A DNA stretch of 64,000 bases from NCBI GenBank assembly GCA_958295675.1, contig OY282360.1:358394-422393 (forward strand). The letters are read 5' to 3'. This document shows positions 26,233 through 61,712 of this stretch, piece after piece. This stretch comes from Minisyncoccota bacterium (GTDB taxonomy: Bacteria; Patescibacteriota; Minisyncoccia; Phycocordibacterales; JABAAK01). The translations under genes and the position numbers were made by a program. How positions within the stretch are numbered: the stretch's first letter is position 1; the number at the start of each line of letters is the position of its first letter. The notes under the pieces were generated by a model that was not told the DNA's origin, searched no databases, and worked only from the letters and a program-made list of their open reading frames with translations.

Positions 26233-26239
26233 ATATTCG

Positions 26240-29664: not shown

Positions 29665-29733
29665 TTTAGCGGAAACGCCGGTGAGTTCAGGTACGAATCA
29701 GGGTTTGCCTTTTATCAAGCAAGAACTGCACTT

Positions 29734-32963: not shown

Positions 32964-33040
32964 TCAATACCTCCTTTTAGGTTTGTTTAGCATGAGACAA
33001 AATCTCCAAAGTAAGTATACCACTTTAGGATACATTTTTC

Positions 33041-33063
33041 AAAAAACAAACCCCAAACACATA
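33041..33063. terminator. bidirectional hairpin terminator element, copy 5
   Basis: ccccaaacac-ata-gtgtttgagg. Confidence 0.45.
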
Positions 33064-33083
33064 GTGTTTGAGGTTCTGATGAC

Positions 33084-36673: not shown

Positions 36674-36745
36674 TCACTATATTCCGCGGTAGCTCAGCGG
36701 TAGAGCAACCGGCTGTTAACCGGTAGGTCGCAGGTTCGAATCCCG
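36674..36745 (+). tRNA. tRNA-Asn (anticodon GUU)
   Basis: Acceptor tccgcgg/ccgcgga, anticodon loop cuGUUaa, T-loop ttcgaat. Confidence 0.8.
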
Positions 36746-36851
36746 CCCGCGGAGCAATAACACAGATTTCACATTTTTTCAAAAAATGGTATATTATTTG
36801 TTAGAAAGGTTTCCTTTTCTGTTCATTTCAAACACACCAAAAGGAGGTTTT

Positions 36852-37139
36852 ATGAACCTACACCCACCACCGAAAATGGTTGGAATGCTGATACCACAAA
36901 ACCGTATGCTTCGGCTTTGGGAGAAGTTGAAGCAGTGTGCTGTGACGACCTTTCATCTCATCACACTCCGTAGGTGGATGCGGCCCGACGTTTACGTTGC
37001 TCGCAACTACAGCATACCACCGGAAGTGCTTGCACAACTGGCAAGGGATCCGGATGCGGTTACTCGGCAGATAGTTGCTCACCGCACCGTACCACCAGAA
37101 GTCCTTGCAAGATTGACGGACGATAAGGTTTCTCCCTGA
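36852..37139 (+). CDS. short LRV-type protein carrying the shared N-terminal module (MLRLWEKLKQ...ITLRR)
   Basis: ATG after AAGGAGG. Two IPPEVLAQLARDPDAVTRQIVAHRTVPPEVL units. Ends ...LTDDKVSP. Confidence 0.55.
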   Translation: MNLHPPPKMVGMLIPQNRMLRLWEKLKQCAVTTFHLITLRRWMRPDVYVARNYSIPPEVLAQLARDPDAVTRQIVAHRTVPPEVLARLTDDKVSP

Positions 37140-37149
37140 GTCGTCAGAA

Positions 37150-37172
37150 CCCCAAACACACAGTGTTTGGGG
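37150..37172. terminator. bidirectional hairpin terminator element, copy 6
   Basis: ccccaaacac-aca-gtgtttgggg plus T-tract. Confidence 0.55.
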
Positions 37173-37276
37173 TTTATTTTTTAAATAACTTAAAAATTAT
37201 AGTTAAAAGATGTATACTTGGGTGGGAGAAAATCCCTAACCACCCCTAACCGAGTCGAAATGAAGGAGGTCCGATA

Positions 37277-37777
37277 ATGGGCATAGCCCTGCTAGAAAAT
37301 TTGTTGCAGAAGCAAGTTTTCAAAGAAATAGACTCAAACGCAACATCAGTTGAAGTGCTTGCATCATTGGTGTCACTGACATTAGATGAGTTCATTGCGA
37401 CCAGAGACCCGAACACATCGAAAAAGACGCTTGCACGACTTGCAAACAGTGACAATCTGCTCGTTCAGATACTTGTTGCCAAACATCCGAACACATCACC
37501 AGAAACTCTCAAGCAGTTTGTTGAGATGGTGAAACAGGGCAAACAGTTTGGAACTGAAATTCAGTTTCTTCTGCAAATACCTCTCATCCAAAATCAAAAT
37601 ACGCCTTCGGAAGCACTCGCGTTTTTTGCCGAGAGTGAGAACGAGGATGTACGGTGTGCCGTTGCCAGAAATCCGAACACACCGCCGGAAGTTCTCCTCA
37701 AACTTAAGGAGGATAGGAGTTTACTCGTGCAGCAGTATGCCGAAGAGAACCCAAACACACCGTTGACTTCTCCCTGA
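37277..37777 (+). CDS. LRV-repeat protein
   Basis: 166 aa. GAAGGAGG RBS. ...DVRCAVARNPNTPPEVLLKL.... Confidence 0.65.
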   Translation: MGIALLENLLQKQVFKEIDSNATSVEVLASLVSLTLDEFIATRDPNTSKKTLARLANSDNLLVQILVAKHPNTSPETLKQFVEMVKQGKQFGTEIQFLLQIPLIQNQNTPSEALAFFAESENEDVRCAVARNPNTPPEVLLKLKEDRSLLVQQYAEENPNTPLTSP

Positions 37778-37786
37778 GTCGTCAGA

Positions 37787-37809
37787 ACCCCAAACACACA
37801 GTGTTCGGG
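37787..37809. terminator. bidirectional hairpin terminator element, copy 7
   Basis: ccccaaacacacagtgttcgggg. Confidence 0.55.
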
Positions 37810-37827
37810 GTTTATTTTTTAAATAAC

Positions 37828-37855
37828 TTGAAAATTATAGTTTAAATGGTATCTT
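37828..37855 (+). promoter_or_regulatory. cassette promoter TTGAAA / 16 nt / TGgTATCTT (representative; repeated before each family-A gene)
   Basis: Same sequence near 38160, 39090, 40100, 42780 and 43980. Confidence 0.4.
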
Positions 37856-37862
37856 GTTTGTT

Positions 37863-37880
37863 AGAAAGGTTTCCCTTTCT
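37863..37880 (+). promoter_or_regulatory. conserved 5'-UTR stem-loop agaaagg-tttc-cctttct (representative)
   Basis: Present in every family-A leader and in the leader of 36852..37139. Confidence 0.4.
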
Positions 37881-37913
37881 GTTCGTTTCAAACACACCAA
37901 AAGGAGGTGTTTT

Positions 37914-38090
37914 GTGAATCAAAAGATGTACCGGATCCGTGAGAAGATACAGCACACTGATGATGATTTAGATCTCAGCAACCTCACCTCCGCGAAAGGA
38001 CTCACCTTGCCGAGGAAGATTGGTGGTGATCTGGTTCTCAGCGGTCTCAGAATACCACCGGAAGAAGTCTTTAAGTCCTTGCAAGATTGA
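37914..38090 (+). CDS. family-A mini-gene (single 22-aa repeat)
   Basis: GTG after AGGAGG. VNQKMYRIREKIQHTDDDLDLSNLTSAKGLTLPRKIGGDLVLSGLRIPPEEVFKSLQD. Confidence 0.45.
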   Translation: MNQKMYRIREKIQHTDDDLDLSNLTSAKGLTLPRKIGGDLVLSGLRIPPEEVFKSLQD

Positions 38091-38123
38091 TGGACGATAA
38101 GGTTTCTCCCTGAGTCGTCAGAA

Positions 38124-38146
38124 CCCCAAACATATAGTGTTTGGGG
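38124..38146. terminator. bidirectional hairpin terminator element, copy 8
   Basis: ccccaaacatatagtgtttgggg. Confidence 0.5.
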
Positions 38147-38251
38147 TTTGTTTTTAAACAATTTGAAAACATAGTTAAAAAAAATGGTATATTATTTGTT
38201 GGAAAGATTCCCCTTTCTGTTTATTTCAAACACACCAAAAGGAGGTGTTTT

Positions 38252-38968
38252 GTGGATCCACACATGTCTCGGCTCCGTAGGAATATACAGCACGTTGATG
38301 ATAATTTAGATCTCAGCAATCTCACCTCCGCGAAAGGACTCACGCTACCTGAAGAGATTGTTGGTGATCTGAATCTCAGCGGTCTTGTCTCCGCTGAGGG
38401 ACTCACCCTGCCGAGGAAGATTGGTGGTGATCTGCGGCTCAACGGTCTCACCTCCGCTGAAGGACTCACGCTACCTGAAGAGATTGGTGGTCATCTGGAT
38501 CTCAGAGATCTCACCTCCGCGAAAGGACTCACGCTACCTGAAGAGATTGGTGGCAGTCTGGTTCTCAGCGGTCTCACCTCCGCTGAGGGACTCACCCTGC
38601 CGAGGAAAATTGGTGGTGGTCTGTTTCTCAGCGGTCTCAAGTCCGCGAAAGGACTCACGCTACCTGAAGAGATTGGTGGTGATCTGTGGCTCATCGGTCT
38701 CACCTCCGCGAAAGGACTCACGCTACCTGAAGAGATTAGTGGCAGTCTGTGGCTCGACAATCTCACCTCCGCGAAAGGACTCACGCTACCTGAAGAGATT
38801 AGTGGCAGTCTGTGGCTCGACAATCTCACCTCCGCGAAAGGACTCACCCTGCCGAGGAAAATTGGTGGCATTTTGTTTCTCAGCGGACTCACCTCCGCTG
38901 AGGGACTTACACTCCCTGAAGAGATTGGTGGTTATCTGTGGATCGGAGGAAGGAAGGTACAGCATTAG
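38252..38968 (+). CDS. family-A 22-aa tandem-repeat protein (about 10 repeats)
   Basis: GTG after AGGAGG. VDPHMSRLRRNIQHVDDNLDLSNL then LTSAKGLTLPEEIGGxLxLxGL units. Confidence 0.65.
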   Translation: MDPHMSRLRRNIQHVDDNLDLSNLTSAKGLTLPEEIVGDLNLSGLVSAEGLTLPRKIGGDLRLNGLTSAEGLTLPEEIGGHLDLRDLTSAKGLTLPEEIGGSLVLSGLTSAEGLTLPRKIGGGLFLSGLKSAKGLTLPEEIGGDLWLIGLTSAKGLTLPEEISGSLWLDNLTSAKGLTLPEEISGSLWLDNLTSAKGLTLPRKIGGILFLSGLTSAEGLTLPEEIGGYLWIGGRKVQH

Positions 38969-39042
38969 TGTTGCTATAAGCAACCCACCACCGGAAGTCC
39001 TTGCAACATTGATGGACGATAAGGTTTCTCCCTGAATCGTCA

Positions 39043-39065
39043 GAACCCCGAACATTATGTGTTCG
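39043..39065. terminator. bidirectional hairpin terminator element, copy 9
   Basis: ccccgaacattatgtgttcgggg. Confidence 0.5.
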
Positions 39066-39171
39066 GGGTTTATTTTTTAAATAACTTGAAAATTATAGTT
39101 TAAATGGTATCTTGTTTGTTAGAAAGGTTTCCCTTTCTGTTCGTTTCAAACACACCAAAAGGAGGTGTTTT

Positions 39172-40095
39172 GTGAATCAAACTGGCTCCGTGATGCAACA
39201 CACTGATGATTTAGATCTCAGCAACCTCACCTCCGCGAAAGGACTTACACTCCCTGAAGAGATTACTGGCACTCTGGATCTCAGCGGTCTCACCTCCGCT
39301 GAGGAACTCACGCTACCTGAAGAGATTGGTGGTAATCTGGATCTCAGAGGTCTCACCTCCGCTGAGGGACTCACCCTGCCGAGGAAGATTGGTGGTGCTC
39401 TGTTGCTCGACGGTCTCACCTCCGCGAAAGGACTCACGCTACCTGAAGAGATTGGTGGTGATCTGTGGCTCATCGGTCTCACCTCCGCGAAAGGACTCAC
39501 GCTACCTGAAGAGATTGGTGGTCATCTGGTTCTCAACGGTCTCACCTCCGCGAAAGGACTCACCCTGCCGAGGAAAATTGGTGGCATTTTGTTTCTCATC
39601 GGTCTCACTTTCGCTGAAGAACTCACCCTGCCGAGGAAGATTAGCGGTAGTCTGTATCTCAACGGTCTCACCTCCGCTAAGGGACTTACGCTACCTGAAG
39701 AGATTGGTGGTCATCTGATTCTCAGCGGTCTCACTTCCGCGAAAGGACTCACCCTACCGAGGAAGATTGGTGGTGCTCTGGTTCTCAGCGGTCTCACCTC
39801 CACTGAAGGACTCACCCTGCCGAAGAAGATTGGTGGTGATCTGGATCTCAACGGTCTCAAGTCCGCTGAAGAACTCACACTACCTGAAGAGATTGGTGGC
39901 AGTCTGTTTCTCGACGGTCTCAGTTCCGCTGAGGGACTCACGCTACCTGAAGAGATTGGTGGCATTCTGGTTCTCAACGGTCTCACCTCCACGAAAGGAC
40001 TCACCCTGCCGAGGAAGATTGGTGGTCATCTGGATCTCAGAGGTCAGAACCCCGAACATTATGTGTTCGGGGTTTATTTTTTTAAACAACTTTAA
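39172..40095 (+). CDS. family-A 22-aa tandem-repeat protein (about 13 repeats); 3' tail deleted, ORF reads through the terminator hairpin
   Basis: GTG after AGGAGG. The repeat is fused directly to tcagaaccccgaaca...; ends FGVYFFKQL. Confidence 0.55.
   Translation: MNQTGSVMQHTDDLDLSNLTSAKGLTLPEEITGTLDLSGLTSAEELTLPEEIGGNLDLRGLTSAEGLTLPRKIGGALLLDGLTSAKGLTLPEEIGGDLWLIGLTSAKGLTLPEEIGGHLVLNGLTSAKGLTLPRKIGGILFLIGLTFAEELTLPRKISGSLYLNGLTSAKGLTLPEEIGGHLILSGLTSAKGLTLPRKIGGALVLSGLTSTEGLTLPKKIGGDLDLNGLKSAEELTLPEEIGGSLFLDGLSSAEGLTLPEEIGGILVLNGLTSTKGLTLPRKIGGHLDLRGQNPEHYVFGVYFFKQL
40047..40069. terminator. bidirectional hairpin terminator element, copy 10
   Basis: ccccgaacattatgtgttcgggg. Confidence 0.5.
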
Positions 40096-40179
40096 AATTA
40101 TAGTTAAAAATGGTACCTTGTTTGGTAGGAAAGGATTTCCCTTTCTGTTCATTTCAAACACACCAAAAGGAGGTGTTTT

Positions 40180-42579
40180 GTGAATCAAAAGATGTACCGG
40201 ATCCGTGAGAAGATACAGCACACTGATGATGATGATTTAGATCTCAGCAATCTCACCTCCGCGAAAGGACTCACTCTGCCGAGGAAGATTGGTGGCAGTC
40301 TGTTTCTCAGAGGTCTCACCTCCGCGAAAGAACTCACGCTACCTGAAGAGATTGGTGGTGATCTGTGGCTCGACGGTCTCACCTCCGCGAAAGGACTCAC
40401 GCTACCGAAAGAAATCGGCGGTGTTCTGAATCTCAACGGACTCACCTCCGCTGAAGGATTCACGCTACCTGAAGAGATTGGTGGTGGTCTGTGGCTCAAC
40501 GGTTTCGATCCCGCGAAAGGATTCACCCTGCCGAGGAAGATTGGTGGTGATCTGCGGCTCGACGGTCTCACCTCCGCGAAAGGACTCACGCTACCTGAAG
40601 AGATTGGTGGTCTGTTTCTCAGAGGTCTCACCTCCGCAAAAGGACTCACACTACCTGAAGAGATTGGTGGTGATCTGGATCTCACCGGTCTCACTTCCGC
40701 GAAAGGACTCACTCTGCCGAGGAAGATTGGTGGTGATCTGTGGCTCAACAGACTCACTTCCACGAAAGGACTCACGCTACCTGAAGAGATTGGTATTGGT
40801 GGTGATCTGCGGCTCGACGGTCTCACCTCCGCGAAAGGACTCACCCTGCCGAGGAAGATTGGTGGTCTGGATCTCAGCGGTCTCACTTCCGCGAAAGGAC
40901 TCACGCTACCTGAAGAGATTGGTGATGATCTGTTGCTCGACAATCTCACTTCCGCGAAAGGACTCACGCTACCTGAAGAGATTGGTGGCAGTCTGGTTCT
41001 CAGAGGTCTTACCTCCGAGAAAGGACTCACCCTGCCGAGGAAGATTGGTGGCAGTCTGTTTCTCAGAGGTCTCGCCTCCGCGAAAGAACTCACGCTACCT
41101 GAAGAGATTGGTGGTGATCTGGATCTCAGCGGTCTCACTTTCGCGAAAGAACTCACCCTGCCGAGGAAGATTGGTGGTGAACTGGATCTTAGCGGTCTCA
41201 CCTCCGCGAAAGAACTCACGCTACCTGAAGAGATTGATATTGGTGGTCATCTGGATCTCAGAGGTCTCACCTCCGCTGAAGAACTCACCCTGCCGAGGAA
41301 GATTGGTGGTCATTTGCGGCTCGACGATCTCAAGTCCGCTGAGGGACTTACACTCCCTGAAGAGATTGGTGGTGATCTGCGGCTCGACGGTCTCACCTCC
41401 GCAAAAGGACTCACGCTACCTGAAGAGATTGGTGGTCGTCTGGATTTCAGCGGTCTCACTTCCGCTGAAGAACTCACGCTACCTGAAGAGATTGCTGGTG
41501 ATCTGGTTCTCAGAGGTCTCACCTCCGCGAAAGGACTCACGCTACCTGAAGAGATTGGTGGTGATCTGGTTCTCATCGGTCTCACCTCCACGAAAGGACT
41601 CACCTTGCCGAGGAAGATTGGTGGTGATCTGGTTCTCAGAGGTCTCACCTCCGCGAAAGGACTCACGCTACCTGAAGAGATTGGTGGTGATCTGGATATC
41701 AGCGGTCTCACCTCCGCGAAAGGACTCACGCTACCTGAAGAGATTGGTGGTGATCTGGTTCTCATCGGTCTCACCTCCGCTGAAGAACTCACACTACCTG
41801 AAGAGATTGGTGGTAGTCTACATCTCAGCGGTCTTACCTCCGCGAAAGGACTCACCCTGCCGAGGAAGATTGGTGGTGGTCTGTATCTCATCGGTCTCAC
41901 CTCCGCGAAAGGACTCACCCTGCCGAGGAAGATTGGTGATCATCTGTGGCTCGACGGTCTCACCTCCGCGAAAAAACTCACGCTACCTGAAGAGATTGGT
42001 GGTCTGTTTCTCAGCGGTCTCACTTCCGCTAAAGAGATAAGTGGCAGTCTGTATCTCAACGGACTCACTTCAGCGGAAGGACTCATCCTACCGAGGAAGA
42101 TTGGTGGTCATCTGGTTCTCAGCGGTCTCACCTCCGCTGAAGAACTCACACTACCTGAAGAGATTGGTGGTGATTTGGATCTCAGCGGTCTCACCTCCGC
42201 GAAAGGACTCATACTACCGGAAGAGATTGGTGGTGATTTGATTCTCAGCGGTCTCACTTCCGCGAAAGGACTCACGCTACCTAAAGAGATTGGTGGTCAT
42301 CTGGATCTCAGCGGTCTCACCTCCACGAAAGGACTCACCTTAGCGAGGAAGATTGGTGGTGAACTGGATCTTAGCGGTCTCACCTCCGCGAAAGAACTCA
42401 CGCTACCTGAAGAGATTGATATTGGTGGTCATCTGGATCTCAGAGGTCTCACCTCCGCGAAAGGACTCACTCTGCCGAGGAAGATTGGTGGTGATCTGCT
42501 TCTCAGCGGTTATTATCCCATGCTTCTTTCTTTTTCTCTTCATTCTCAGCATCTATTTCCTCCTGCCGAGGAAAATTAG
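40180..42579 (+). CDS. family-A giant 22-aa tandem-repeat protein (about 35 repeats), interrupted near the 3' end
   Basis: 799 aa in frame 1. A non-repeat ~52-nt segment at about 42512-42565 replaces 24 nt of one repeat, causing a +1 shift. The repeat frame resumes and ends at 42706 (...LKSLQD). Confidence 0.55.
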   Translation: MNQKMYRIREKIQHTDDDDLDLSNLTSAKGLTLPRKIGGSLFLRGLTSAKELTLPEEIGGDLWLDGLTSAKGLTLPKEIGGVLNLNGLTSAEGFTLPEEIGGGLWLNGFDPAKGFTLPRKIGGDLRLDGLTSAKGLTLPEEIGGLFLRGLTSAKGLTLPEEIGGDLDLTGLTSAKGLTLPRKIGGDLWLNRLTSTKGLTLPEEIGIGGDLRLDGLTSAKGLTLPRKIGGLDLSGLTSAKGLTLPEEIGDDLLLDNLTSAKGLTLPEEIGGSLVLRGLTSEKGLTLPRKIGGSLFLRGLASAKELTLPEEIGGDLDLSGLTFAKELTLPRKIGGELDLSGLTSAKELTLPEEIDIGGHLDLRGLTSAEELTLPRKIGGHLRLDDLKSAEGLTLPEEIGGDLRLDGLTSAKGLTLPEEIGGRLDFSGLTSAEELTLPEEIAGDLVLRGLTSAKGLTLPEEIGGDLVLIGLTSTKGLTLPRKIGGDLVLRGLTSAKGLTLPEEIGGDLDISGLTSAKGLTLPEEIGGDLVLIGLTSAEELTLPEEIGGSLHLSGLTSAKGLTLPRKIGGGLYLIGLTSAKGLTLPRKIGDHLWLDGLTSAKKLTLPEEIGGLFLSGLTSAKEISGSLYLNGLTSAEGLILPRKIGGHLVLSGLTSAEELTLPEEIGGDLDLSGLTSAKGLILPEEIGGDLILSGLTSAKGLTLPKEIGGHLDLSGLTSTKGLTLARKIGGELDLSGLTSAKELTLPEEIDIGGHLDLRGLTSAKGLTLPRKIGGDLLLSGYYPMLLSFSLHSQHLFPPAEEN

Positions 42580-42739
42580 TGGTAGTCTGTTTCTCAGCGG
42601 TCTCACTTCCGCGAAAGGACTCACCCTACCTGAAGAGATTGGTGGTGATTTGGTTCTCAGCGGTCTCACCATACCACCGGAAATCCTTAAGTCCTTGCAA
42701 GATTGATGGACGATAAGGTTTCTCCCTGAGTCGTCAGAA

Positions 42740-42762
42740 CTCCGAACACATAGTGTTCGGGG
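42740..42762. terminator. bidirectional hairpin terminator element, copy 11
   Basis: ctccgaacacatagtgttcgggg. Confidence 0.5.
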
Positions 42763-42863
42763 TTTATTTTTAAATAACTTGAAAATATAGTTAAAAAATA
42801 GTACATTGTTTGTTAGAAGGGTTTCCCTTTTTGTTCACTTCAAACACACCAAAAGGAGATTTT

Positions 42864-43904
42864 ATGAATGTGGGGACACCACCAACAAAACTTACAGCGG
42901 AAGTGATTGCAGGGTGGGGGGCACCAGACAACTGGATGCTCCGGCTTTGGAAGAAGTTGAAGCAGCGTGCTGTGATCTTTTGTCTCATCACACTCCGTAG
43001 GGAGATGCAGTACATTGATGGCGATATGGATCTCAGCGGTCTCACCTCCGCTGAGGGACTCACCCTGCCGAGGAAGATTGGTGGTTGTCTGGATCTCAGC
43101 GGTCTCACCTCCGCTGAGGGACTCACCCTGCCGGAGGAAATCGGTGATTGGCTGGATCTCAGAGGTCTCACCTCCGCTGAGGGACTCACCCTGCCGGAGG
43201 AAATCGGTAATTGGCTGGATCTCAGCGGTCTCACCTCCGCTGAGGGACTCACGCTACCGAAAGAGATTACTGGCAATCTGTTTCTCAGCGGTCTCACCTC
43301 CGCGAAAGGACTCACCCTGCCGAGGAAGATTGGTGGCGGTCTGGATCTCAGCGGTCTCACCTCCGCTGAGGGACTCACCCTGCCGAGGAAAATTGGTGGT
43401 GGTCTGTTTCTCAGCGGTCTCACCTCCGCGAAAGGACTCACCCTGCCGAGGAAGATTGGTGGTTTTCTGTGGTTCAGCGGTCTCACCTCCGCTGAGGGAA
43501 TCACCTGGCCGGAAGAGATTGGTGGTGATCTGGATCTCAGCGGTCTCACTTCCGCGAAAGGACTCACGCTACCGAAAGAGATTACTGGCAATCTGTTTCT
43601 CAGCGGTCTCACTTCCGCGAAAGGACTCACGCTACCGAAAGAGATTACTGGCAATCTGTTTCTCAGCGGTCTCACTTCCGCGAAAGGACTCACGCTACCT
43701 GAAGAGGTTGGTGGTGATCTGGATCTCAGAGGTCTCACTTCCGCTGAAGAACTCACACTACCTGAAGAGATTGGTGGCGATCTGGTTCTCAACGGTCTCA
43801 CCTCCGCGAAAGGACTTACGCTACCGAGGAAGATTGGTGGTGATCTGGTTCTCAGCGGTCTCAGAATACCACCGGAAGAAGTCTTTAAGTCCTTGCAAGA
43901 TTGA
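42864..43904 (+). CDS. family-A 22-aa tandem-repeat protein with LRV-type N-terminal module (MNVGTPP...MLRLWKKLKQRAV...ITLRR)
   Basis: ATG after AAAGGAG. N-terminal 55 aa are homologous to 36852..37139, then about 13 of the 22-aa repeats. Confidence 0.65.
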   Translation: MNVGTPPTKLTAEVIAGWGAPDNWMLRLWKKLKQRAVIFCLITLRREMQYIDGDMDLSGLTSAEGLTLPRKIGGCLDLSGLTSAEGLTLPEEIGDWLDLRGLTSAEGLTLPEEIGNWLDLSGLTSAEGLTLPKEITGNLFLSGLTSAKGLTLPRKIGGGLDLSGLTSAEGLTLPRKIGGGLFLSGLTSAKGLTLPRKIGGFLWFSGLTSAEGITWPEEIGGDLDLSGLTSAKGLTLPKEITGNLFLSGLTSAKGLTLPKEITGNLFLSGLTSAKGLTLPEEVGGDLDLRGLTSAEELTLPEEIGGDLVLNGLTSAKGLTLPRKIGGDLVLSGLRIPPEEVFKSLQD

Positions 43905-43937
43905 TGGACGATAAGGTTTCTCCCTGAGTCGTCAGAA

Positions 43938-43960
43938 CCCCAAACATATAGTGTTTGGGG
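43938..43960. terminator. bidirectional hairpin terminator element, copy 12
   Basis: ccccaaacatatagtgtttgggg. Confidence 0.5.
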
Positions 43961-44065
43961 TTTGTTTTTAAACAATTTGAAAACATAGTTAAAAAAAATG
44001 GTATATTATTTGTTGGAAAGATTCCCCTTTCTGTTTATTTCAAACACACCAAAAGGAGGTGTTTT

Positions 44066-45265
44066 GTGGATCCACACATGTCTCGGCTCCGTAGGAATAT
44101 ACAGCACGTTGATGATAATTTAGATCTCAGCAATCTCACCTCCGCGAAAGGACTCACGCTACCTGAAGAGATTGTTGGTGATCTGAATCTCAGCGGTCTT
44201 GTCTCCGCTGAGGGACTCACCCTGCCGAGGAAGATTGGTGGTGATCTGCGGCTCAACGGTCTCACCTCCGCTGAAGGACTCACGCTACCTGAAGAGATTG
44301 GCGGTGATCTGAATCTCATCGGTCTCACCTCCGCTGAAGGACTTACGCTACCTGAAGAGATTGGTGGTGGTCTGAATTTCAGCAATCTCACCTCCGCTGA
44401 GGGACTCACCCTGCCAAGGAAGATTGGTAGTCATCTGCGGCTCGACGATCTCAAGTCCGCTGAGGGACTTACACTCCCTGAAGAGATTGGTAGTGATCTG
44501 CTTCTCAGCAGACTCACCTCCGCGAAAGGACTCACCCTGCCGAGGAAGATTGGCCGTAATCTGTGGCTCAACGGTCTCACTTCCGCTGAGGGACTCACGC
44601 TACCTGAAGAGATTGGTGGTCATCTGGTTCTGAGCGGTCTCACTTCCGCGAAAGAACTCATCCTGCCGAGGAAGATTGGTGGTAAACTGGATCTCAGCGG
44701 TCTCACTTCCGCTGAAGAACTCACGCTACCTGAAGAGATTGGTGGTGATCTGTTGCTCAACGGTCTCACCTCCGCTGAGGGACTCACCCTGCCAAGGAAG
44801 ATTGGTGGTTCTCTGTGGCTCAACGGTCTTACCTCTGCGAAAGAACTCACCCTGCCGAGGAAGATTGGTGGTGGTCTGTATCTCCGCGATCTCACCTCTA
44901 CTGAAGGACTCACGCTACCTGAAGAGATTGGTAGCAGTTTGTTTCTCAGCGGTCTCACCTCCGCTGAAGAACTCACGCTACCTGAAGAGATTGGTGGTGC
45001 TCTGGATCTCAGCGGTCTCACCTCCGCGAAAGGACTCACCCTGCCGAGGAAGATTGGTGGTGATCTGCGGCTCAGCGGACTCACCTCCGCGAAAGGACTC
45101 ACGCTACCTGAAGAGATTGGCCGTGATCTGTGGCTCAGAGGTCTCACCTCCACTGAAGGACTCACGCTACCTGAAGAGATTGGCCGTAATCTGGTTCTCA
45201 GCAGTTTCACCTCCGCGAAAGGACTCACCCTGCCGAGGAAGAGAGGAAGATTGGTGGTTTTCTGA
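44066..45265 (+). CDS. family-A 22-aa tandem-repeat protein (about 17 repeats)
   Basis: GTG after AGGAGG. The first ~350 nt (from the terminator through the start) are near-identical to the 38126-38420 region. Confidence 0.65.
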   Translation: MDPHMSRLRRNIQHVDDNLDLSNLTSAKGLTLPEEIVGDLNLSGLVSAEGLTLPRKIGGDLRLNGLTSAEGLTLPEEIGGDLNLIGLTSAEGLTLPEEIGGGLNFSNLTSAEGLTLPRKIGSHLRLDDLKSAEGLTLPEEIGSDLLLSRLTSAKGLTLPRKIGRNLWLNGLTSAEGLTLPEEIGGHLVLSGLTSAKELILPRKIGGKLDLSGLTSAEELTLPEEIGGDLLLNGLTSAEGLTLPRKIGGSLWLNGLTSAKELTLPRKIGGGLYLRDLTSTEGLTLPEEIGSSLFLSGLTSAEELTLPEEIGGALDLSGLTSAKGLTLPRKIGGDLRLSGLTSAKGLTLPEEIGRDLWLRGLTSTEGLTLPEEIGRNLVLSSFTSAKGLTLPRKRGRLVVF

Positions 45266-45331
45266 TGCTCAAAAATCGCATCTTCCGCGTAAGATTGACG
45301 GACGATAAGGTTTCTTCCTGAGTCGTCAGAA

Positions 45332-45354
45332 CCCCGAACACACAGTGTTCGGGG
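45332..45354. terminator. bidirectional hairpin terminator element, copy 13
   Basis: ccccgaacacacagtgttcgggg. Serves the convergent genes 44066..45265 and 45408..46244. Confidence 0.5.
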
Positions 45355-45407
45355 TTTATTTTTAAACAACTCTATATTTTCAAAGAGGCCGCTTCTTTTG
45401 CATTGTG

Positions 45408-51327: not shown

Positions 51328-52190
51328 TTACCTAAATTGAACCTGATCAGGATACTGTTTCTTCAGTTCTTCTTTCTCGTTGTCTGGCAGTGCTTGACTT
51401 GCAAATATAGAGTTTCCAATTTTTATAGGCCAGTTGGTGATACCTTGAGTGGATGTGAGTCTATTAAGGTACAGATTATCACCAATCTCTTTCGGCATAG
51501 TGATCTCAGTATCTTCAGTATCTATGGATGTGAGACTGATAAAATTCAGACTACCACCAACCACCTCCGGCATAGTGAATTTAGTATCTATGGATGTGAT
51601 TCTCCTGAGATCCAGACCACCAACTCCTTCGGCATGGTAATCTCAGTATCTATAGATGTGAGATTGCCGAGAGCCAGAGTACCGCCAACCTCCTCCGGCA
51701 GCGTGAGTCCCTCAGCGGAGGTGAGATCACCGAGATCCAAGTCACCATAATGATACCGTATAGTACCGGAAAGCGCCTCTTCTTCAGTCAAAGAAATACG
51801 ATTGGAAGTGGTGCCAAACGCAAGCGCGAGATCCTGTTTCTTCTCTTCATCGCTTCTCCATCTTTTCATCATCTCTCTTCGTCTTTCTTCTTCCTCATAA
51901 TTCCTACTTTTCAAGTGCTGACCTATGCCATACAACACCCAGTATTCCCATTTCGTCAGGTTCTTCTTGTCCTCCATCTTCCGCTCTATATCGTCCAGAC
52001 GCTCATTAAACGGCTGTTTGTACAATACCACCACATCACGCAATTCTTCCGCAAGGTTATCAAACTTTCTAACTGTTTCCTTTACCGCATCAGATTCCAT
52101 TCCTTCTTTGACAAGCACAGAGAGACACAATTCTCGCAATCCGTCCAATACTTTCAATTGTTTCTGTAGTTCTTCGCATATATCCGCCAT
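51328..52190 (-). pseudogene. family-B repeat-protein gene disrupted by partial duplication/frameshift
   Basis: N-terminal ORF 51588..52211 (MADICEELQKQL...) and C-terminal ORF 51328..51573 (...ITNWPIKIG...KKQYPDQVQFR) are in different frames. The IDTEITMPKE segment is duplicated at the junction. Confidence 0.5.
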
Positions 52191-52280
52191 GCTGACGGTA
52201 GTGTACCCCATATATCAAATGCCGTACTCTTTCTTGTGTGAAGATGTTTTTTAGTTTTAATTGTATTCCATTTCATTATT

Positions 52281-53321
52281 TTATCCATAATGAACCTGAC
52301 CCGGATACCGTTTCTCCAGCTCTTCTCTCTCGTTGTCTGGCAATGCTTTGTTTGCATATATAACACCTCCAATCTTTGATGGCCAGTAAGTGATACCTTG
52401 GATAGTGTTAAGACCATATATATCTAAACCATTACCAATCTCTTCAGGTAGCGTGAGTCCTTTCGCGGAGGTGAGACCTCTGAGATCCAGATGACCTCCG
52501 ATTTTTTTTGGCAGTCTGAGTCCTTCAACGAAGGTGAGACTACTGAGATGTAGACTACCATTAATCTCTTCTGGCAGGGTAAATCCCTCAGCGGAGGTAA
52601 GATTGTCAAGCCACAGGCTACCACCAATATTCCTCGGCAAAGTGAGTCCCTTAGCGGAACTGAGACCGCCGAGATCTAGATGACCACCAATCTCCCTCGG
52701 CAGGATGAGTCCTTCAGCGGAGGTGAGTCTACTGAGATGTATACTACCACCAATATTCCTCGGCAAAGTGAGTCCCTTAGCGGAGGTGAGACTACTGAGA
52801 TGTAGACTACCACTAATCTCTTCTGGCAGAGTGAGTCCCTCAGCGAAAGTGATACCGTCAAGCCACAAATCACTACCAATCTCCCTCGGTAGGATGAGTT
52901 TCTCAGCGGACTTGAGACCGCCGAGATCCAGATGACCACCAATCTTCCTCGGCAAAGTGAGTCCCTTAGCGGAGGTGAGTCTGCCGAGATGTAGACTGCC
53001 ACTAATCTCTTCCGGCAGGGTGAATCCCTCAGCGGAAGTGAGACCGTCGAGCCACAGACTGCCGTTATGATACCGTATTTTTCCAGAAAGTGCTTCTTCT
53101 TCATTCACGGAAATACGATCAGGTGTGGTGTCAAACGCGCGCGCGAGATCCTGTTTCTTTTCTTCATCACTTCTCCTGTTCTCTGGCAAAACAAGATCTT
53201 GACCTATATTCTCTGGCAAAACAAGATCTATATCAGCATTTGGTTCATCATGTTCTGTTTTGGGTTTTCTGTATTTTCCGTCTAAAGGACCTGATTCCTT
53301 CATATGTGTATAATTTACCAT
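52281..53321 (-). CDS. family-B protein, N-terminally truncated variant (unique 45-aa N-terminus, about 11 repeats, conserved C-terminal module)
   Basis: ...RRSDEEKKQDLARAFDTTPDRISVNEEEALSGKIRYH then 22-aa repeats, ending GITYWPSKIGGVIYANKALPDNEREELEKRYPGQVHYG. Confidence 0.55.
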   Translation of the reverse strand: MVNYTHMKESGPLDGKYRKPKTEHDEPNADIDLVLPENIGQDLVLPENRRSDEEKKQDLARAFDTTPDRISVNEEEALSGKIRYHNGSLWLDGLTSAEGFTLPEEISGSLHLGRLTSAKGLTLPRKIGGHLDLGGLKSAEKLILPREIGSDLWLDGITFAEGLTLPEEISGSLHLSSLTSAKGLTLPRNIGGSIHLSRLTSAEGLILPREIGGHLDLGGLSSAKGLTLPRNIGGSLWLDNLTSAEGFTLPEEINGSLHLSSLTFVEGLRLPKKIGGHLDLRGLTSAKGLTLPEEIGNGLDIYGLNTIQGITYWPSKIGGVIYANKALPDNEREELEKRYPGQVHYG

Positions 53322-53370
53322 ACATATATATGGTAGATACGAATGTGGAAAAATTGATTATATCTATAGT

Positions 53371-54093
53371 TTACACATATTGAACCTGATCAGGATACTG
53401 TTTCTTCAGTTCTTCTTTCTCGTTGTCTGGCAGTGCTTGACTTACAATTATCTCGTGTCTAATTTTTATAGGCCAGTTGGTGATACCTTGAGTGGATGTG
53501 AGACCGCTGAGAACCAGACCACCACCAATCTTTCTCGGCAACTCAAGCCCTTCCGCGGAGATGAGAGCGGCGAGAAGCAGATGACCACCAATCTCTTCCG
53601 GCAATGTAACTCCTTTTGCGGAGGCGGTATCTTTAAGATATAATTCATCGTAATGATATCGTATGTTACCGGAAAGTGCTTCTTCTTCGGTCACGGAAAT
53701 ACGGTTAGGTGTGGTGTCAAATTCAATTGCGAGATCCTGTTTCTTCTCTTCATCGCTTCTCCATTTTTCTACAATTTCTTTTCGTCTTTTATCTTCTTCA
53801 TATTTAAGACGGCCCGGATACCAATCCACACCATACAACAGACGACATTCCCGTCTATCAAGTGGTTTCTTGTCCTCCATTTTCCGCTCTATATCGTCCA
53901 GACGCTCATTAAACGGCTGTCTGTAGAATACCGTAGCATCACGCAATTCTTCCGCCAGCGTATCAAACTCCCTAACCGCTTTCTTCGCCGCATCAGATTC
54001 CATTCCTTCTTTGACAAGCACAGAGAGACACGATTCCCGCAATCCGTCCAATACTTTCAGATCTTTCCGCAGTTCTTTGCATATATCTGCCAT
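53371..54093 (-). CDS. family-B protein (N-terminal ~150-aa helical domain + 2-3 repeats + C-terminal module)
   Basis: MADICKELRKDLKVLDGLRESCLSVLVKEGMESDAAKK ... QGITNWPIKI ... KKQYPDQVQYV. Confidence 0.65.
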   Translation of the reverse strand: MADICKELRKDLKVLDGLRESCLSVLVKEGMESDAAKKAVREFDTLAEELRDATVFYRQPFNERLDDIERKMEDKKPLDRRECRLLYGVDWYPGRLKYEEDKRRKEIVEKWRSDEEKKQDLAIEFDTTPNRISVTEEEALSGNIRYHYDELYLKDTASAKGVTLPEEIGGHLLLAALISAEGLELPRKIGGGLVLSGLTSTQGITNWPIKIRHEIIVSQALPDNEKEELKKQYPDQVQYV

Positions 54094-54160
54094 ACTGGAA
54101 AATAGTATACCCTATATACTAAACATTTCCTTTGGTTTGATTGTATTCCATTTCATTATT

Positions 54161-55636
54161 TTATTCATAACGAACCTTGCCCGGATACCGTTTCTCCAGT
54201 GCTGCTTTCTCATTGCCTGGTAGTGCTTCGTTTACATATATAACACCTCCAATCTTTGATGACCAATCAGTGATACCTTGAGTGGATGTGAGACCGTTGA
54301 GAACCAGAGTACCACCAATCTTCCTCGGCAGGATGAGTCCCTCGGCGGAAGTGAGACCGCTGAGAACCAGACCACCACCAATCTTCCTCGGCAACTCAAG
54401 CCCTTCCGCGGAGGTGAGACCGCTGAGAAGTAGACTACCACCAATCTCTTCAGGTAGTGTGAGTTCTTCAGCGGAGGTGAGACCTCTGAGAACCAGATCA
54501 CCACCAATCTCTTCAGGTAGCGTGAGTCCTTTCGCGGAGGTGAGACCGCTGAGAACCAGATCACCACCAATCTCTTCAGGTAGCGTGAGTCCTTTCGCGG
54601 AGGTGAGACCGCTGAGAACCAGATCACCACCAATCTCTTCAGGTAGTGTGAGTTCTTCAGCGGAGGTGAGACCTCTGAGAACCAGATCACCAGCAATCTC
54701 TTCAGGTAGCGTGAGTTCTTCAGCGGAGGTGAGACCGTTGAGAACCAGAGTACCACCAATCTTCCTCGGCAGGATGAGTCCCTCGGCGGAAGTGAGACCG
54801 CTGAGATTCAGACCGCCACCAACCTCTTCAGGTAGCGTGAGTCCCTCAGCGGAAGTGAGACCGCTGAGAAACAGACCACCAATCTCTTCAGGTAGCGTGA
54901 GTTTTTTCGCGGAGGTGAGACCGTCGAGCCACAGATGACCACCAATCTTCCTCGGCAGGGTGAGTCCTTTCGCGGAGGTGAGACCGTTGAGATACAGACC
55001 ACCACCAATCTTCCTCGGCAGGGTGAGTCCTTTCGCGGAGGTGAGACCGCTGAGAAGTAGACTACCACCAATCTCTTCAGGTAGTGTGAGTTCTTCAGCG
55101 GAGGTGAGACCGATGAGAACCAGATCACCACCAATCTCTTCCGGCAATGTAACTCCTTTTGCGGAGGCGGTATCTTTAAGATATAATTCATCGTAATGAT
55201 ATCGTATGTTACCGGAAAGTGCTTCTTCTTCGGTCACGGAAATACGGTTAGGTGTGGTGTCAAATTCAATTGCGAGATCCTGTTTCTTCTCTTCATCGCT
55301 TCTCCATTTTTCTACAATTTCTTTTCGTCTTTTATCTTCTTCATATTTAAGACGGCCCGGATACCAATCCACACCATACAACAGACGACATTCCCGTCTA
55401 TCAAGTGGTTTCTTGTCCTCCATTTTCCGCTCTATATCGTCCAGACGCTCATTAAACGGCTGTCTGTAGAATACCGTAGCATCACGCAATTCTTCCGCCA
55501 GCGTATCAAACTCCCTAACCGCTTTCTTCGCCGCATCAGATTCCATTCCTTCTTTGACAAGCAGAGAGATACAAAATTGTCGCCATGCATCCAGCTCTTT
55601 CAAATCTTTCAGCAGTTCTTTGCATATACTCGCCAT
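54161..55636 (-). CDS. family-B protein (N-domain + about 14 repeats + C-terminal module)
   Basis: Start at MASICKELL. N-domain 95% identical to 53371..54093. Confidence 0.65.
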   Translation of the reverse strand: MASICKELLKDLKELDAWRQFCISLLVKEGMESDAAKKAVREFDTLAEELRDATVFYRQPFNERLDDIERKMEDKKPLDRRECRLLYGVDWYPGRLKYEEDKRRKEIVEKWRSDEEKKQDLAIEFDTTPNRISVTEEEALSGNIRYHYDELYLKDTASAKGVTLPEEIGGDLVLIGLTSAEELTLPEEIGGSLLLSGLTSAKGLTLPRKIGGGLYLNGLTSAKGLTLPRKIGGHLWLDGLTSAKKLTLPEEIGGLFLSGLTSAEGLTLPEEVGGGLNLSGLTSAEGLILPRKIGGTLVLNGLTSAEELTLPEEIAGDLVLRGLTSAEELTLPEEIGGDLVLSGLTSAKGLTLPEEIGGDLVLSGLTSAKGLTLPEEIGGDLVLRGLTSAEELTLPEEIGGSLLLSGLTSAEGLELPRKIGGGLVLSGLTSAEGLILPRKIGGTLVLNGLTSTQGITDWSSKIGGVIYVNEALPGNEKAALEKRYPGKVRYE

Positions 55637-60653: not shown

Positions 60654-60707
60654 TCATCAATAATAGAAACAAAGATAAAGATATTTTTATAGTATACTAC
60701 CCTCGGT

Positions 60708-61655
60708 ATGACAGATATATGCAAAGAGCTGCGGAAAGATCTGAAAGAACTGGACGCATTGCGGGAATCGTGTGTCTCCGCGCTTGTCAGAGAAGGAATG
60801 GAATCCGATGCGGCAAAGAAAACGATTGAGGAGTTTGATACGCTGGCGGAACACTTGCGTGATGTGGTGGCATTGTACAAACAGCCGTTCGGTGAGTATC
60901 TTGATATGCTTGAAAAAAAGATAGACGACAAGAAACCGCTTGACAGGCGGGAATGCGGTCTGTTGTACGGTGTGAATCGGTATCCAGGAAATGTCAGTGG
61001 TGCTGAAAAAGTAAAACGATACATTCTCATAGAAAAAAGAACCGGTGCAGAGAAAAAAGAAGATCTCAAACTTGCACTTGAGGAACTCACGCCGCCGAGA
61101 GAGATTGATGGTGATTTGAATCTTGGTGATCTCACCTCCGCTGAGGGACTCATCTTGCCGGAGAAAATTGGTGGTGATATGTACCTCCACAATCTCACCT
61201 CCGCAAAAGAACTCACGCTACCTGAAGAGATTGGTGGTGATCTGTGGCTCAGCGGTCTCACCTCCGCTGAAGAACTCACGCTACCTGAAGAGATTGGTGG
61301 TGATCTGTTTCTCAGCGATCTCACTTCCGCAAAAGAACTCACCCTGCCGAGGAAGATTGGTGGTGATATGTACCTCCACAGTCTCACCTCCGCAAAAGAA
61401 CTCACGCTACCTGAAGAGATTGGTGGTGATCTGTGGCTCAACGGTCTCACCTCCGCAAAAGAACTCACGCTACCTGAAGAGATTGGTGGTGATCTGTGGC
61501 TCGACGGTCTCACCACTATTATAGGTATCAAACACTGGCCATCAAAGACAGGAAGGGCTATGTTTATAAACAAAAAACTACCGCAAGAAGAGAAAAAAGA
61601 ACTGGAGAAACGGTATCCTTATCCTGGTCAGGTTAAGTATGTGGATCATTCCTAA
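60708..61655 (+). CDS. family-B protein (N-domain + about 7 repeats + C-terminal module)
   Basis: MTDICKELRKDLKELDALRESC..., ends KRYPYPGQVKYVDHS. Confidence 0.7.
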   Translation: MTDICKELRKDLKELDALRESCVSALVREGMESDAAKKTIEEFDTLAEHLRDVVALYKQPFGEYLDMLEKKIDDKKPLDRRECGLLYGVNRYPGNVSGAEKVKRYILIEKRTGAEKKEDLKLALEELTPPREIDGDLNLGDLTSAEGLILPEKIGGDMYLHNLTSAKELTLPEEIGGDLWLSGLTSAEELTLPEEIGGDLFLSDLTSAKELTLPRKIGGDMYLHSLTSAKELTLPEEIGGDLWLNGLTSAKELTLPEEIGGDLWLDGLTTIIGIKHWPSKTGRAMFINKKLPQEEKKELEKRYPYPGQVKYVDHS

Positions 61656-61712
61656 TCATCAATAATAGAAACAAAGATAAAGAGATATTTTTTATACTAC
61701 ACTACTCTTTAT

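Follow-up and report, generated by a model that had tools for sequence, protein, structure and literature searches.

Simple-sequence contingency loci carry perfect short repeats (units of 1-8 nt) in a coding region or promoter. LRR proteins usually bind their ligands through the concave beta-sheet, and among the 'LPX' effectors those that combine an LRR with an enzyme domain (IpaH, SspH and SlrP) stand beside LRR-only relatives such as YopM. Here we analysed a window of 64,000 nucleotides from a Patescibacteria genome of ~0.72 Mb that hosts six back-to-back repeat-protein genes (cassettes c1-c6), each with its own promoter. On balance, we think it probable that these form a tandem cluster of separately transcribed paralogues, each encoding a stand-alone LRR solenoid of 21-residue units that has been diversified by recombination. 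Given a hypervariable predicted binding face together with segment exchange, the locus resembles a repertoire of recognition proteins and not a classic contingency locus.

The cassettes differ from Leptospira LIC11098, the Listeria internalins and Yersinia YopM in several respects. Their units contain no conserved Asn/Cys 'ladder' residue and instead share a conserved IGG and a dimorphic EE/RK pair, and they come without a signal peptide, an LPXTG motif or a T3SS context. The family to which they belong is set apart from IpaH, SspH, SlrP and YopM by reversed domain order, lineage and repeat motif. It matches the FNIP/IP22-type LRRs of the CroV giant virus and Dictyostelium only weakly and only at the level of the fold, and unit length (22 residues versus 21), motif and host lineage differ.

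An earlier note on this DNA had described six co-oriented cassettes, and we find all six on the plus strand between 37.8 and 45.4 kb (Table 1). It had also correctly listed their parts: each has a promoter, which we find to be sigma-70-like, then a 5' hairpin and AAAGGAGG, a start codon (GTG or ATG), tandem units (1 to about 35 by its account, 1-35 by ours) and a terminator. No cassette lacks a promoter-like site, an SD, a start codon or a terminator, the last having a 13-bp stem in which one pair varies in a compensatory manner (A-U versus G-C, four sequences each). The leader motif occurs seven times and the tail motif eight times in the window, with a chance expectation of 0 for both. The GTG start predicted for c1 yields an exact 58-aa protein of the public collection. 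Such an investment of coding capacity is remarkable in so small a genome, a point of the earlier note that we uphold.

Other parts of that description require revision. The array was said to begin at 37780; a seventh unit, c0, lies upstream with the same leader, tail and terminator. Its protein matches Pfam LRV (E=1e-9), has an exact copy in the public protein collection and is 56% identical to c5 at the N-terminus. Between c0 and c1 lies an LRV/HEAT-like gene whose leader differs from that of the cassettes and whose stop and terminator module is the same. The supposedly identical promoters and leaders show a mean column identity of 83%, the only identical pairs being c1 = c3 and c2 = c6. The tail is not conserved throughout, as c3 lacks 'tggacgataaggtttctccctga' and only c1 and c5 read it in frame. 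The -35/-10 spacers of c1-c6 measure 16, 19, 16, 17, 17 and 19 nt, differences accounted for by a poly-A run of 3, 5, 6 or 8 nt within the spacer; a 19-nt spacer is poor for sigma-70. This run, overlooked in the earlier note, is the sole contingency-like feature.

Table 1. Coordinates of the cassettes, neighbouring genes, paralogues and shared tracts within the window.
Feature	Position	Strand	Details
LRV gene	28383-33618		True LRV match by HMM
tRNA-Asn	36683-36755		Directly upstream of c0
Cassette c0	36768..37185	+	Promoter-like site 36768-36795; leader motif 36826; shared leader and SD
c0 ORF	36852-37139	+	95 aa, LRV/HEAT-like; shared tail; terminator 37147-37175
LRV/HEAT-like gene	37277..37823 including terminator module; gene 37277-37777	+	166 aa, LRV E=1e-13
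Cassette c1	37828..38149	+	Promoter TTGAAA-16-TATCTT 37828-37855; 5' hairpin 37862-37881; terminator 38121-38149
c1 ORF	37914-38090	+	GTG start, 58 aa, 1 unit, tail RIPPEEVFKSLQD*
Identical block	38010..38487 = 43824-44301	+	478 bp, 100%
Cassette c2	38163..39071	+	Promoter TTGAAA-19-TATATT with A8 run, 38163-38193; terminator 39043-39071
c2 ORF	38252-38968	+	GTG, 238 aa, 10 units; stop, then out-of-frame LRV-like tail (VAISNPPPEVLATLMDDKVSP*)
Cassette c3	39086..40095	+	Promoter 39086-39113; hairpin 39120-39139; promoter and leader as in c1
c3 ORF	39172-40095	+	GTG, 307 aa, 13 units; array runs into terminator 40047-40075
Cassette c4	40091..42765	+	Promoter TTTAAA-17-TACCTT 40091-40119; hairpin 40128-40146; terminator 42737-42765
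c4 ORF	40180-42579	+	GTG, 799 aa, 35 units
c4/g54 near-identical tracts	41615..42030	+	g54 is a full-length paralogue on the opposite strand, 13 kb away
c4 insert	42509-42561	+	Foreign, 53 nt, frame-shifting
c4 orphaned part	to 42706	+	Two units and tail TIPPEILKSLQD*
Cassette c5	42779..43963	+	Promoter TTGAAA-17-TACATT 42779-42807; terminator 43935-43963
c5 ORF	42864-43904	+	ATG, 346 aa; 59-aa c0-related N-terminus, 13 units, in-frame tail RIPPEEVFKSLQD*
Cassette c6	43977..45357	+	Promoter 43977-44007 with A8, 19-nt spacer; promoter and leader as in c2; terminator 45329-45357
c6 ORF	44066-45265	+	GTG, 399 aa, 18 units
c6 duplication	last unit	+	7 nt (GAGGAAG), frame-shifting, ahead of degenerate tail
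Paralogue cluster	51588..55636	-	Short N-domain (~135 aa) and C-terminal tail
Paralogues in this cluster	51588-52211; g52 52281-53321; g53 53371-54093; g54 54161-55636	-
Further paralogues	59145..62564	+	With N-domain and tail
g59	59145-60653	+	15 units
g60	60708-61655	+	6 units
g61	61713-62564	+

The repeat has a period of 63 bp (21 aa) by TRF and unit parsing; the value of 66 bp (22 aa) given earlier arose because the count had run on into the leading L of the following unit. The unit motif, LTSA(K/E)GLTLP(EE/RK)IGGxLxLxG, is within the 20-30 residues of tandem LRR units and continues into an LxLxGL pattern, with no conserved N or C position of the LxxLxLxxN/CxL core. Structure prediction for the c5 protein gives a curved solenoid with a parallel beta-sheet and one strand region per unit, suggesting an LRR fold. 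HMM searches of Pfam, NCBIfam and the PDB detected no similarity to solved bacterial LRR proteins. There was no significant match to the Pfam LRR clan, the only LRR model listed being LRR_EndoS (E=0.14; 12.8 bits, with a cut-off of 27.9), and a resemblance to BspA-type LRR_5 (PF13306; TpLRR/BspA units of ~23 residues) that had been proposed failed the HMM test, as none of five repeat proteins matched at E<=1. Matches to Thr_synth_N, Glutaredoxin2_C and HNH_5 contained no significant stretch and were rejected as sums of weak repeat matches.

Among the 133 units 118 are distinct, and residues 16, 18 and 20 occur in 83 different triplets. Mean unit identity is 79%, adjacent units average 75-84%, and the EE/RK pair tends to alternate along neighbouring units. 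The codon positions behave differently in the two parts of the unit. Nucleotide diversity at the first, second and third positions is 0.087, 0.055 and 0.267 for conserved residues, and 0.52, 0.58 and 0.26 for unit positions 16, 18 and 20. Based on the DSSP strand register of the predicted model and general LRR knowledge, these variable positions (x in GGxLxLxG) are probably exposed to solvent on the concave beta-sheet.

The window contains at least seven more genes of the 21-aa repeat family, at 51.3-55.7 kb on the minus strand and 59.1-64 kb on the plus strand. The cassette units fit the family pattern LTSAEGLxLPxxIGGxLxLxxL, which we propose, from homology, to define a 21-aa LRR family represented by no database model. 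Searches gave 573 matches among 8,000 candidates and 2,105 representative clusters at E<=1e-3; the named matches are from Patescibacteria, and a few members are on viral (phage) contigs. Nearly all other members have both an N-domain, recognized by the motifs TGWCTAG, GDFYVYY, PRIAIRM and GFGY..DPRI or as a ~135-aa C-terminal remnant of it, and a C-terminal tail, '(E/D)K..L..(K/R)(Y/R)P' or '...EK..L.KRYP...'; g51-g54 and g59-g61 carry this tail and the short form of the N-domain. The N-domain, which the cassettes do not have, weakly resembles GNAT acetyltransferases. The species was not found in the genome and metagenome collections searched.

Sequence exchange has left several traces in the array. 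The 478-bp identical block, a recent segmental duplication or conversion, takes in the tail and terminator of c1 together with the promoter, leader and first ~3.7 units of c2, and matches the corresponding stretch of c5 and c6. It lies within a 544-bp match whose nine mismatches all fall in the last 43 bp. A further 123 bp are 100% identical between c1 and c3 (37801-37923 = 39059-39181), and head and tail types are shuffled among the cassettes. Cassette c4 and the complete gene g54 are connected by tracts of the kind that conversion leaves: 41737-42030 equals 55141-54848 (294 bp, 98.6%) and 41615-41844 equals 54636-54407 (230 bp, 97%). Eight of the ten distinct nucleotide differences in these tracts change an amino acid, mostly at positions 15-20.

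The cluster may have originated by repeated duplication of a gene unit lying between shared promoter/5'-hairpin/SD and stop/terminator modules, which also serve neighbouring LRV/HEAT-repeat genes. The tails (IPPE..L...) are frame-shifted or truncated LRV units, and a c0-like LRV gene whose interior was swapped for LRR units would be the source of the c5 head and of the c1, c2, c4 and c5 tails. The flanking c0 and the genes at 37277-37777 and 28383-33618 give true LRV matches, whereas the 21-aa repeat, which has no PF01816 match, is not LRV by HMM. LRV proteins form an alpha/3-10 superhelix, and the 21-aa repeat is instead predicted to form a beta-containing solenoid. Unequal recombination among the 63-bp units would then add or remove units without a change of frame, copying among cassettes and to or from full-length paralogues would move blocks of 120-480 bp, and amino-acid-changing substitutions would build up at the three alternating positions, steps in part visible in the tracts and units described above. 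The outcome would be a set of predicted LRR binders varied in length and surface, whose partner may be a variable protein of a host cell or phage.

Alternatively, the locus may be a decaying pseudogene cluster, in which truncated, functionless leftovers of full-length genes preserve a repeat pattern formed by past selection. The cassettes lack the family N-domain and C-terminal tail, and the 3' end is damaged or missing in four of the six, so they could be decaying copies: c3 has lost its tail, and c2, c4 and c6 retain it but are interrupted just upstream by a stop, the 53-nt insert and the 7-nt duplication. In addition, c1 has a single unit, and no long cassette protein is in the public protein collection. 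Functional ancestors or conversion may be the source of the codon-position signature, which then would not reflect maintenance in the cassettes themselves. Against decay, all six cassettes retain their expression signals, and the coding frame runs through ~5.6 kb of repeats uninterrupted by internal frameshifts or stops. The three disruptions are confined to the last ~2 units, which random placement would produce with a probability of ~1e-3 by a rough calculation. The earlier note had argued that changes in repeat number leave the frame intact, and this holds, as the six length-irregular units of c4 all differ by whole codons ((1/3)^6 = 0.0014 for six indels that are all multiples of 3). Its claim that five of six frames are free of stops does not, as the consensus unit is stop-free in three (+0, +1 and -1) and in c4 the coding frame is the only one without a stop. 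Finally, recently exchanged tracts differ mostly by amino-acid changes at variable positions and not randomly. We consider decay unlikely, if still the most serious rival.

A second alternative is that the LRR-only cassettes mainly feed gene conversion into g52-g54 and g59-g61. The c4/g54 tracts, with two rarities among them (a 20-aa unit and 'SAKK'), are in favour of such a reservoir, and the terminal domains are missing, as in donor cassettes. However, silent donors have neither promoter nor start and serve a single expression site, and none of the six cassettes is of this type. Moreover, tracts of such length are found in g54 only, and we saw no dedicated recombinase, recombination site or deaminase nearby. 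A mainly donating role seems very doubtful to us.

Equally doubtful is the 'classic contingency-locus architecture' claimed in the earlier note, in which unit number would slip frequently and homopolymer spacers would switch expression on and off, as in Mycoplasma vlp. In its favour, the poly-A run differs in length among the spacers of these paralogues, the run that follows QHT differs by one D between c1 and c4, and two adjacent unit duplications are perfect (exact runs of 87 and 102 bp at offset 63). However, the units are long and imperfect, only four adjacent pairs reach 95% identity, an A8 run is short for frequent slippage, and in-frame gain or loss of units leaves expression unswitched. 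The possibility that mis-assembly of repetitive reads created the arrays or set their unit numbers is very remote: short-read assembly could go astray at exact repeats of 100-480 bp, and window proteins with at least 10 units are missing from the public collection while all low-repeat neighbours tested are present (one 724,510-bp contig), so that the arrays in public records may differ or be unannotated, yet the number of distinct units and their low mean identity make most of the array uniquely assemblable, frames and unit register hold throughout, and the independent complete Campbellbacteria genome CP064977 contains comparable arrays (11 paralogues in tandem, their ends identical, of roughly 5-14 units).

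We return to the reading of the cassettes as separately transcribed, recombination-diversified LRR paralogues. Inspection of the N-termini by eye shows no signal peptide, in line with the earlier note, and no transmembrane segment. Since there is no Sec signal, we speculate that the proteins either work inside the cytoplasm or are exported by a non-Sec pathway, for instance a type IV secretion system; these systems are common in the Patescibacteria phylum. Roles at the surface, in episymbiosis or as decoys are guesses. A more ambitious version, to which we assign a low likelihood, is a recombination-driven recognition repertoire in which the cassettes would be both expressed binders and donors for the GNAT-like/LRR paralogues, and phages would carry counter-copies of this repeat. 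Were it correct, a minimal-genome episymbiont would possess quickly re-assortable specificities for host-cell or phage proteins.

Among known variable systems, the array is similar to Mycoplasma vlp/vsa in being a cluster of paralogues with a conserved promoter and leader, variable-length in-frame repeats and a promoter spacer with an A-run that is longer in some paralogues than in others. It differs in that the cassettes have no lipoprotein signal peptide, the A-runs are short (3-8), and the repeats, a low-complexity surface region in vlp/vsa, are here predicted to form a folded LRR. With Neisseria pilS/pilE, Borrelia vls and lamprey VLR it shares cassettes of variable segments (LRRs in VLR) near complete genes, and conversion-like tracts. 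Unlike in those systems, each cassette here has its own promoter and start, and there is no single expression site. If the more ambitious repertoire reading is true, the locus would be a functional bacterial counterpart of VLR/NLR-type LRR diversification.

We identified six cassettes (c1 to c6) encoding tandem leucine-rich repeat (LRR) proteins, arranged head to tail on the plus strand as an earlier note on this DNA had described. Tandem Repeats Finder returned a period of 63 bp over 38.3-45.2 kb, and cutting the ORFs at each unit anchor gave a unit of 21 residues with the consensus LTSA(K/E)GLTLP(EE/RK)IGGxLxLxG; the 22 residues and 66 bp reported before had included the first leucine of the next unit. 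Spacing between the units of c4 is 21 residues in 28 of 34 cases, with two spacings of 20, three of 23 and one of 35 residues. A 22-nt leader motif and a 24-nt tail motif occur seven and eight times in the window, respectively, where none is expected by chance, and with the additional copies the array reaches upstream of 37780, previously given as its start. The LRR cassettes occupy about 7.5 kb; together with at least seven further family members and the LRV genes, which form a second solenoid family, they make up about one third of the 64 kb. Within 38141-45370 the arrays also contain long 'shadow' ORFs, both in the +1 frame and antisense; they are by-products of repeat composition, and gene callers could be misled by them. 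The consensus unit lacks stops in three of the six frames, rather than in five.

Features of the repeat cassettes and of related genes
Feature	Position	Strand	Description
c1 ORF	37914-38090	+	58 aa, 1 unit
c2 ORF	38252-38968	+	238 aa, 10 units
c3 ORF	39172-40095	+	307 aa, 13 units
c4 ORF	40180-42579	+	799 aa, 35 units
c5 ORF	42864-43904	+	346 aa, 13 units
c6 ORF	44066-45265	+	399 aa, 18 units
c0	36768-37185	+	directly 3' of tRNA-Asn; leader, SD, tail and terminator as in cassettes
Shadow ORF	42791-43975	-	394 aa
Shadow ORF	40478-42040	+	520 aa
Promoters with differing poly-A spacer	38163-38193, 40091-40119, 42779-42807, 43977-44007	+	
Four LRV/HEAT-like genes	28383-33618	-	349, 789, 238 and 146 aa; 78-bp (26-aa) repeats
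At least seven more family genes	51588-55636 (-), 59145-64000 (+)	-, +	~135-aa N-domain and conserved C-terminal tail
Frameshifted family member	51588-52211	-	

Sequence searches of Pfam, NCBIfam and PDB gave no real match for the 21-aa repeat proteins. The entries listed for Thr_synth_N, Glutaredoxin2_C, HNH_5, threonine synthase and the Lcl adhesin contained no significant individual stretch and were rejected as artefacts of summed weak repeat matches. An AlphaFold2 model of c5 based on 59 homologues (mean pLDDT 88, about 96 over the repeats; pTM 0.83) places two short strand segments in each unit, at positions 12-13 and 17-18. The predicted fold is a divergent LRR solenoid, in agreement with the LRR-like fold proposed earlier. 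In the GGxLxLxG strand, the hypervariable x positions alternate with core leucines and, by analogy with known LRRs, would be expected to point to the concave side, where ligands bind. EE and RK at positions 11-12 show 79 alternations between neighbouring units versus 45 non-alternations, with about 60 alternations expected, a pattern that fits charge stacking along the folded solenoid. Charge pairing within units, between position 5 and positions 11-12, was not significant (Fisher p=0.6). Inspection of the N-termini of the cassette proteins showed no Sec signal, in line with the earlier note.

In 84 units from the array, conserved residues have nucleotide diversities of 0.087, 0.055 and 0.267 at the first, second and third codon positions, a pattern characteristic of purifying selection in the coding frame. 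At unit positions 16, 18 and 20, the x residues of the strand, the corresponding values are 0.52, 0.58 and 0.26, so that variation there is mostly amino-acid-changing. Each of the six indels in c4 spans whole codons, bearing out the proposed in-frame variability of repeat number, and c4 is stop-free in its coding frame only. The predicted GTG start of c1 gives exactly the 58-aa protein found in the public collection. Of the readings considered, the favoured one, which we think somewhat probable, is that the cassettes are a cluster of predicted expressed, LRR-only binding proteins, diversifying in unit number and surface residues. Diversification would proceed by unequal recombination, block conversion and substitution at the three variable positions.

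The 3' ends of the cassettes speak for the alternative that the cluster consists of decaying pseudogenes, a reading which we consider unlikely. The conserved tail previously ascribed to every cassette is in frame only in c1 and c5, which end in RIPPEEVFKSLQD followed by the stop. In c4, a 53-nt unrelated insert (42509-42561) replaces 25 nt and shifts the frame, stranding two more units and the tail (TIPPEILKSLQD and stop). The last unit of c6 holds a 7-nt duplication, and c2 has a stop just ahead of an out-of-frame LRV-like end (VAISNPPPEVLATLMDDKVSP and stop) matching the end of c0. These three cassettes are disrupted before the tail; in c3 the tail is lost, and the frame passes from the array into the terminator. 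Each of the three frame disruptions lies in roughly the last two units of its own array, a placement that would be unlikely were disruptions tolerated anywhere along the arrays. The coding signatures could, in part, be inherited from functional paralogues or imported by conversion.

The cassette tail itself is what is left of an LRV unit (IPPEVLARL...). The upstream unit c0 contains a 95-aa LRV/HEAT-type ORF (Pfam LRV E=1e-9), and the N-termini of c5 and c0 are 56% identical (E=7e-11). The stop and terminator module is also common to the LRV gene at 37277-37777 and ends one of the minus-strand LRV genes (tail motif 33070-33093); the region 29734-32103 matches Pfam LRV at E=1e-120. We infer that the cassettes arose from an LRV-type gene in which LRR units took the place of the interior. 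Integration at tRNA-Asn was considered and rejected, as no repeated copy of the 3' end of this tRNA delimits an integrated island.

The promoters and leaders, once described as identical, have a mean column identity of 83% when aligned, with c1 identical to c3 and c2 to c6. The -35/-10 spacer measures 16 nt in c0, c1 and c3, 17 nt in c4 and c5, and 19 nt in c2 and c6; the differences come almost wholly from a poly-A run (3, 5, 6 or 8 A). With eight A and 19 nt, c2 and c6 would be poor sigma-70 promoters, and the poly-A run may be a tuning or phase-variation element. Every cassette ends in a hairpin with a 13-bp stem followed by a T-run; among nine copies, one pair of this stem is A-U in four sequences and G-C in four. 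The 5'-UTR hairpin (37862-37881, 39120-39139, 40128-40146) was flagged as terminator-like because of the T-rich stretch directly 3' of it; its changes are G-U only, with no compensatory pair. RNAalifold returned a second helix, in which CAAACACACC pairs with the SD-to-start spacer. Covariation supports neither of these predicted 5'-UTR helices, which could serve translational control.

Exchange between copies has left long matching tracts. The promoters and leaders of c1 and c3 are exact copies (37801-37923 and 39059-39181), and an exact 478-bp block, which spans part of the c1 tail, the terminator, promoter and leader and reaches the fourth unit of c2 (38010-38487), recurs in the equivalent stretch from c5 to c6 (43824-44301). 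Head types A (c1, c3, c4), B (c2, c6) and C (c0, c5) combine freely with tail types. Mean unit identity is 0.792 within cassettes and 0.786 between them, which is evidence of mixing. Part of c4 (41737-42030) is 98.6% identical over 294 bp to g54, a full-length paralogue on the opposite strand 13 kb away, and a second c4/g54 tract is 97% identical; 8 of the 10 distinct nucleotide differences in these tracts are amino-acid-changing, mostly at positions 15-20. Such tracts might also be expected if the cassettes were a reservoir of donor sequence for conversion of the full-length genes, a reading that we hold to be quite doubtful. Just as doubtful is a true phase- and size-variable contingency locus, the poly-A promoter runs being the feature most in keeping with it: only four adjacent unit pairs are at least 95% identical, so slippage-type instability should be modest. 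The label of 'classic contingency locus' in the earlier note is therefore not supported; its observation was confirmed in part, and its interpretation stands for the LRR-like fold and in-frame variability.

The CysRS, MreB, HAD, GH130 and several low-repeat genes of the window, c0, c1 and g60 among them, have identical proteins on one 724,510-bp NCBI/ENA contig, and all low-repeat neighbours tested are present in the public protein collection. All window proteins with at least 10 units, LRR and LRV, were absent from the 15-billion-protein collection as exact or near-identical entries. We ruled out that a gene caller took the antisense shadow ORF instead; that of c5 is also absent from the collection. 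Either the long arrays are unannotated in the public record, or the record differs from the window exactly there, in reality or through assembly. An assembly artefact, to which the missing long proteins could point, is very improbable.

The public paralogue P0021 (346 aa), on the 724,510-bp contig, shares its first 160 residues with g59, a plus-strand family member in the window, has 7 different units and at first resembled a shorter allele of g59. Its upstream codons (MG versus LR in g59) and tail differ, and it is not encoded in the window; it is thus probably another paralogue. Comparison of the two sequences suggests N-domain homogenisation between distant paralogues.

A word-indexed search returned 573 matches to the 21-aa LRR family, all 'hypothetical', and those with named sources belong to Campbellbacteria or Patescibacteria. 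An exhaustive search of 1.84 billion representatives gave 2,105 clusters (defined at 50% identity) at E<=1e-3, of which 195 pass E<=1e-30. Neither Pfam nor NCBIfam has a model for the family. The paralogues g51-g54 and g59-g61 keep only the last ~135 aa of the family N-domain, plus the tail; near-identical N-domain duplicates occur at 53572-54026 and 55115-55569 (99.3%). The cassettes c1-c6 lack both the N-domain and the C-terminal family tail, which is rare in the family, and none of 58 homologues examined has an N-terminal length below 60 aa. Campbellbacteria CP064977.1 (L001 9221-20113) carries 11 tandem in-frame paralogues of roughly 5-14 units, with near-identical 135-aa N-domains and tails and separators of a stop plus one codon only, and a JGI contig holds one tandem pair. 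Relatives also occur on phage contigs, as stand-alone proteins. In EBPR podovirus 1 (JF412294.1; L006 1-735), an unannotated 5'-end ORF specifies >10 related units of 20 aa and precedes the annotated RecT and exo genes, and in IMG/VR UViG_3300023246_000127 (L007 2697-3671) a protein of 324 aa contains ten 21-aa units and is encoded next to genes that by inspection are recombination- and exonuclease-like and a pentapeptide-repeat protein.

Genome-collection contig scans with the flanking HAD protein and with non-repeat peptides of c5 as queries found no relative, and two metagenome matches to the invariant 20-nt leader, on a plant-like GST contig and a Bacteroidetes-like contig, were due to chance. 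PADLOC reported nothing for the LRR proteins, and PHROG tail-protein matches were weak and repeat-driven. The next-best CysRS matches are 60-65% identical, the first named one being Candidatus Kaiserbacteria, which places the organism in the Parcubacteria group of the Patescibacteria. Genomes in the Patescibacteria/CPR are very small, and one survey reports that they contain very few paralogues (PMC12455944). Two PBP2-type transpeptidases and two MreB paralogues, one with an N-terminal extension of ~140 aa, lie within 20 kb (17268-19004, 22380-24125, 25081-26499, 34979-36004), which is notable for such a small genome. Near-identical direct repeats (97-98%), unrelated to the arrays, sit among ORFs of 10-12.7 kb (9902-10142 and 10964-11207; 10840-10950 and 12546-12656).

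Little is known of how Patescibacteria/CPR recognize their host cells and make use of them. According to a preprint, type IV secretion systems are common across the Patescibacteria, and one member needs them for epibiotic growth (10.1101/2025.01.22.634366), so export of the cassette proteins by this route is conceivable; given the phage-borne relatives, a role in phage-host conflict is equally conceivable. The variable residues cluster on the predicted binding face, and the copies bear clear marks of recent exchange. With about 2,100 clusters, no model, and no relevant publication found in literature searches on CPR and LRR or repeat proteins, the family is a specific candidate, open to testing, for proteins of partner recognition or conflict in the phylum, and population studies could use its repeat number and surface residues as a simple read-out. 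What is new here is the unmodelled LRR family and the unusual organisation of its modular cassettes; whereas usual LRRs carry an Asn/Cys ladder, the 21-aa repeat is built without one.
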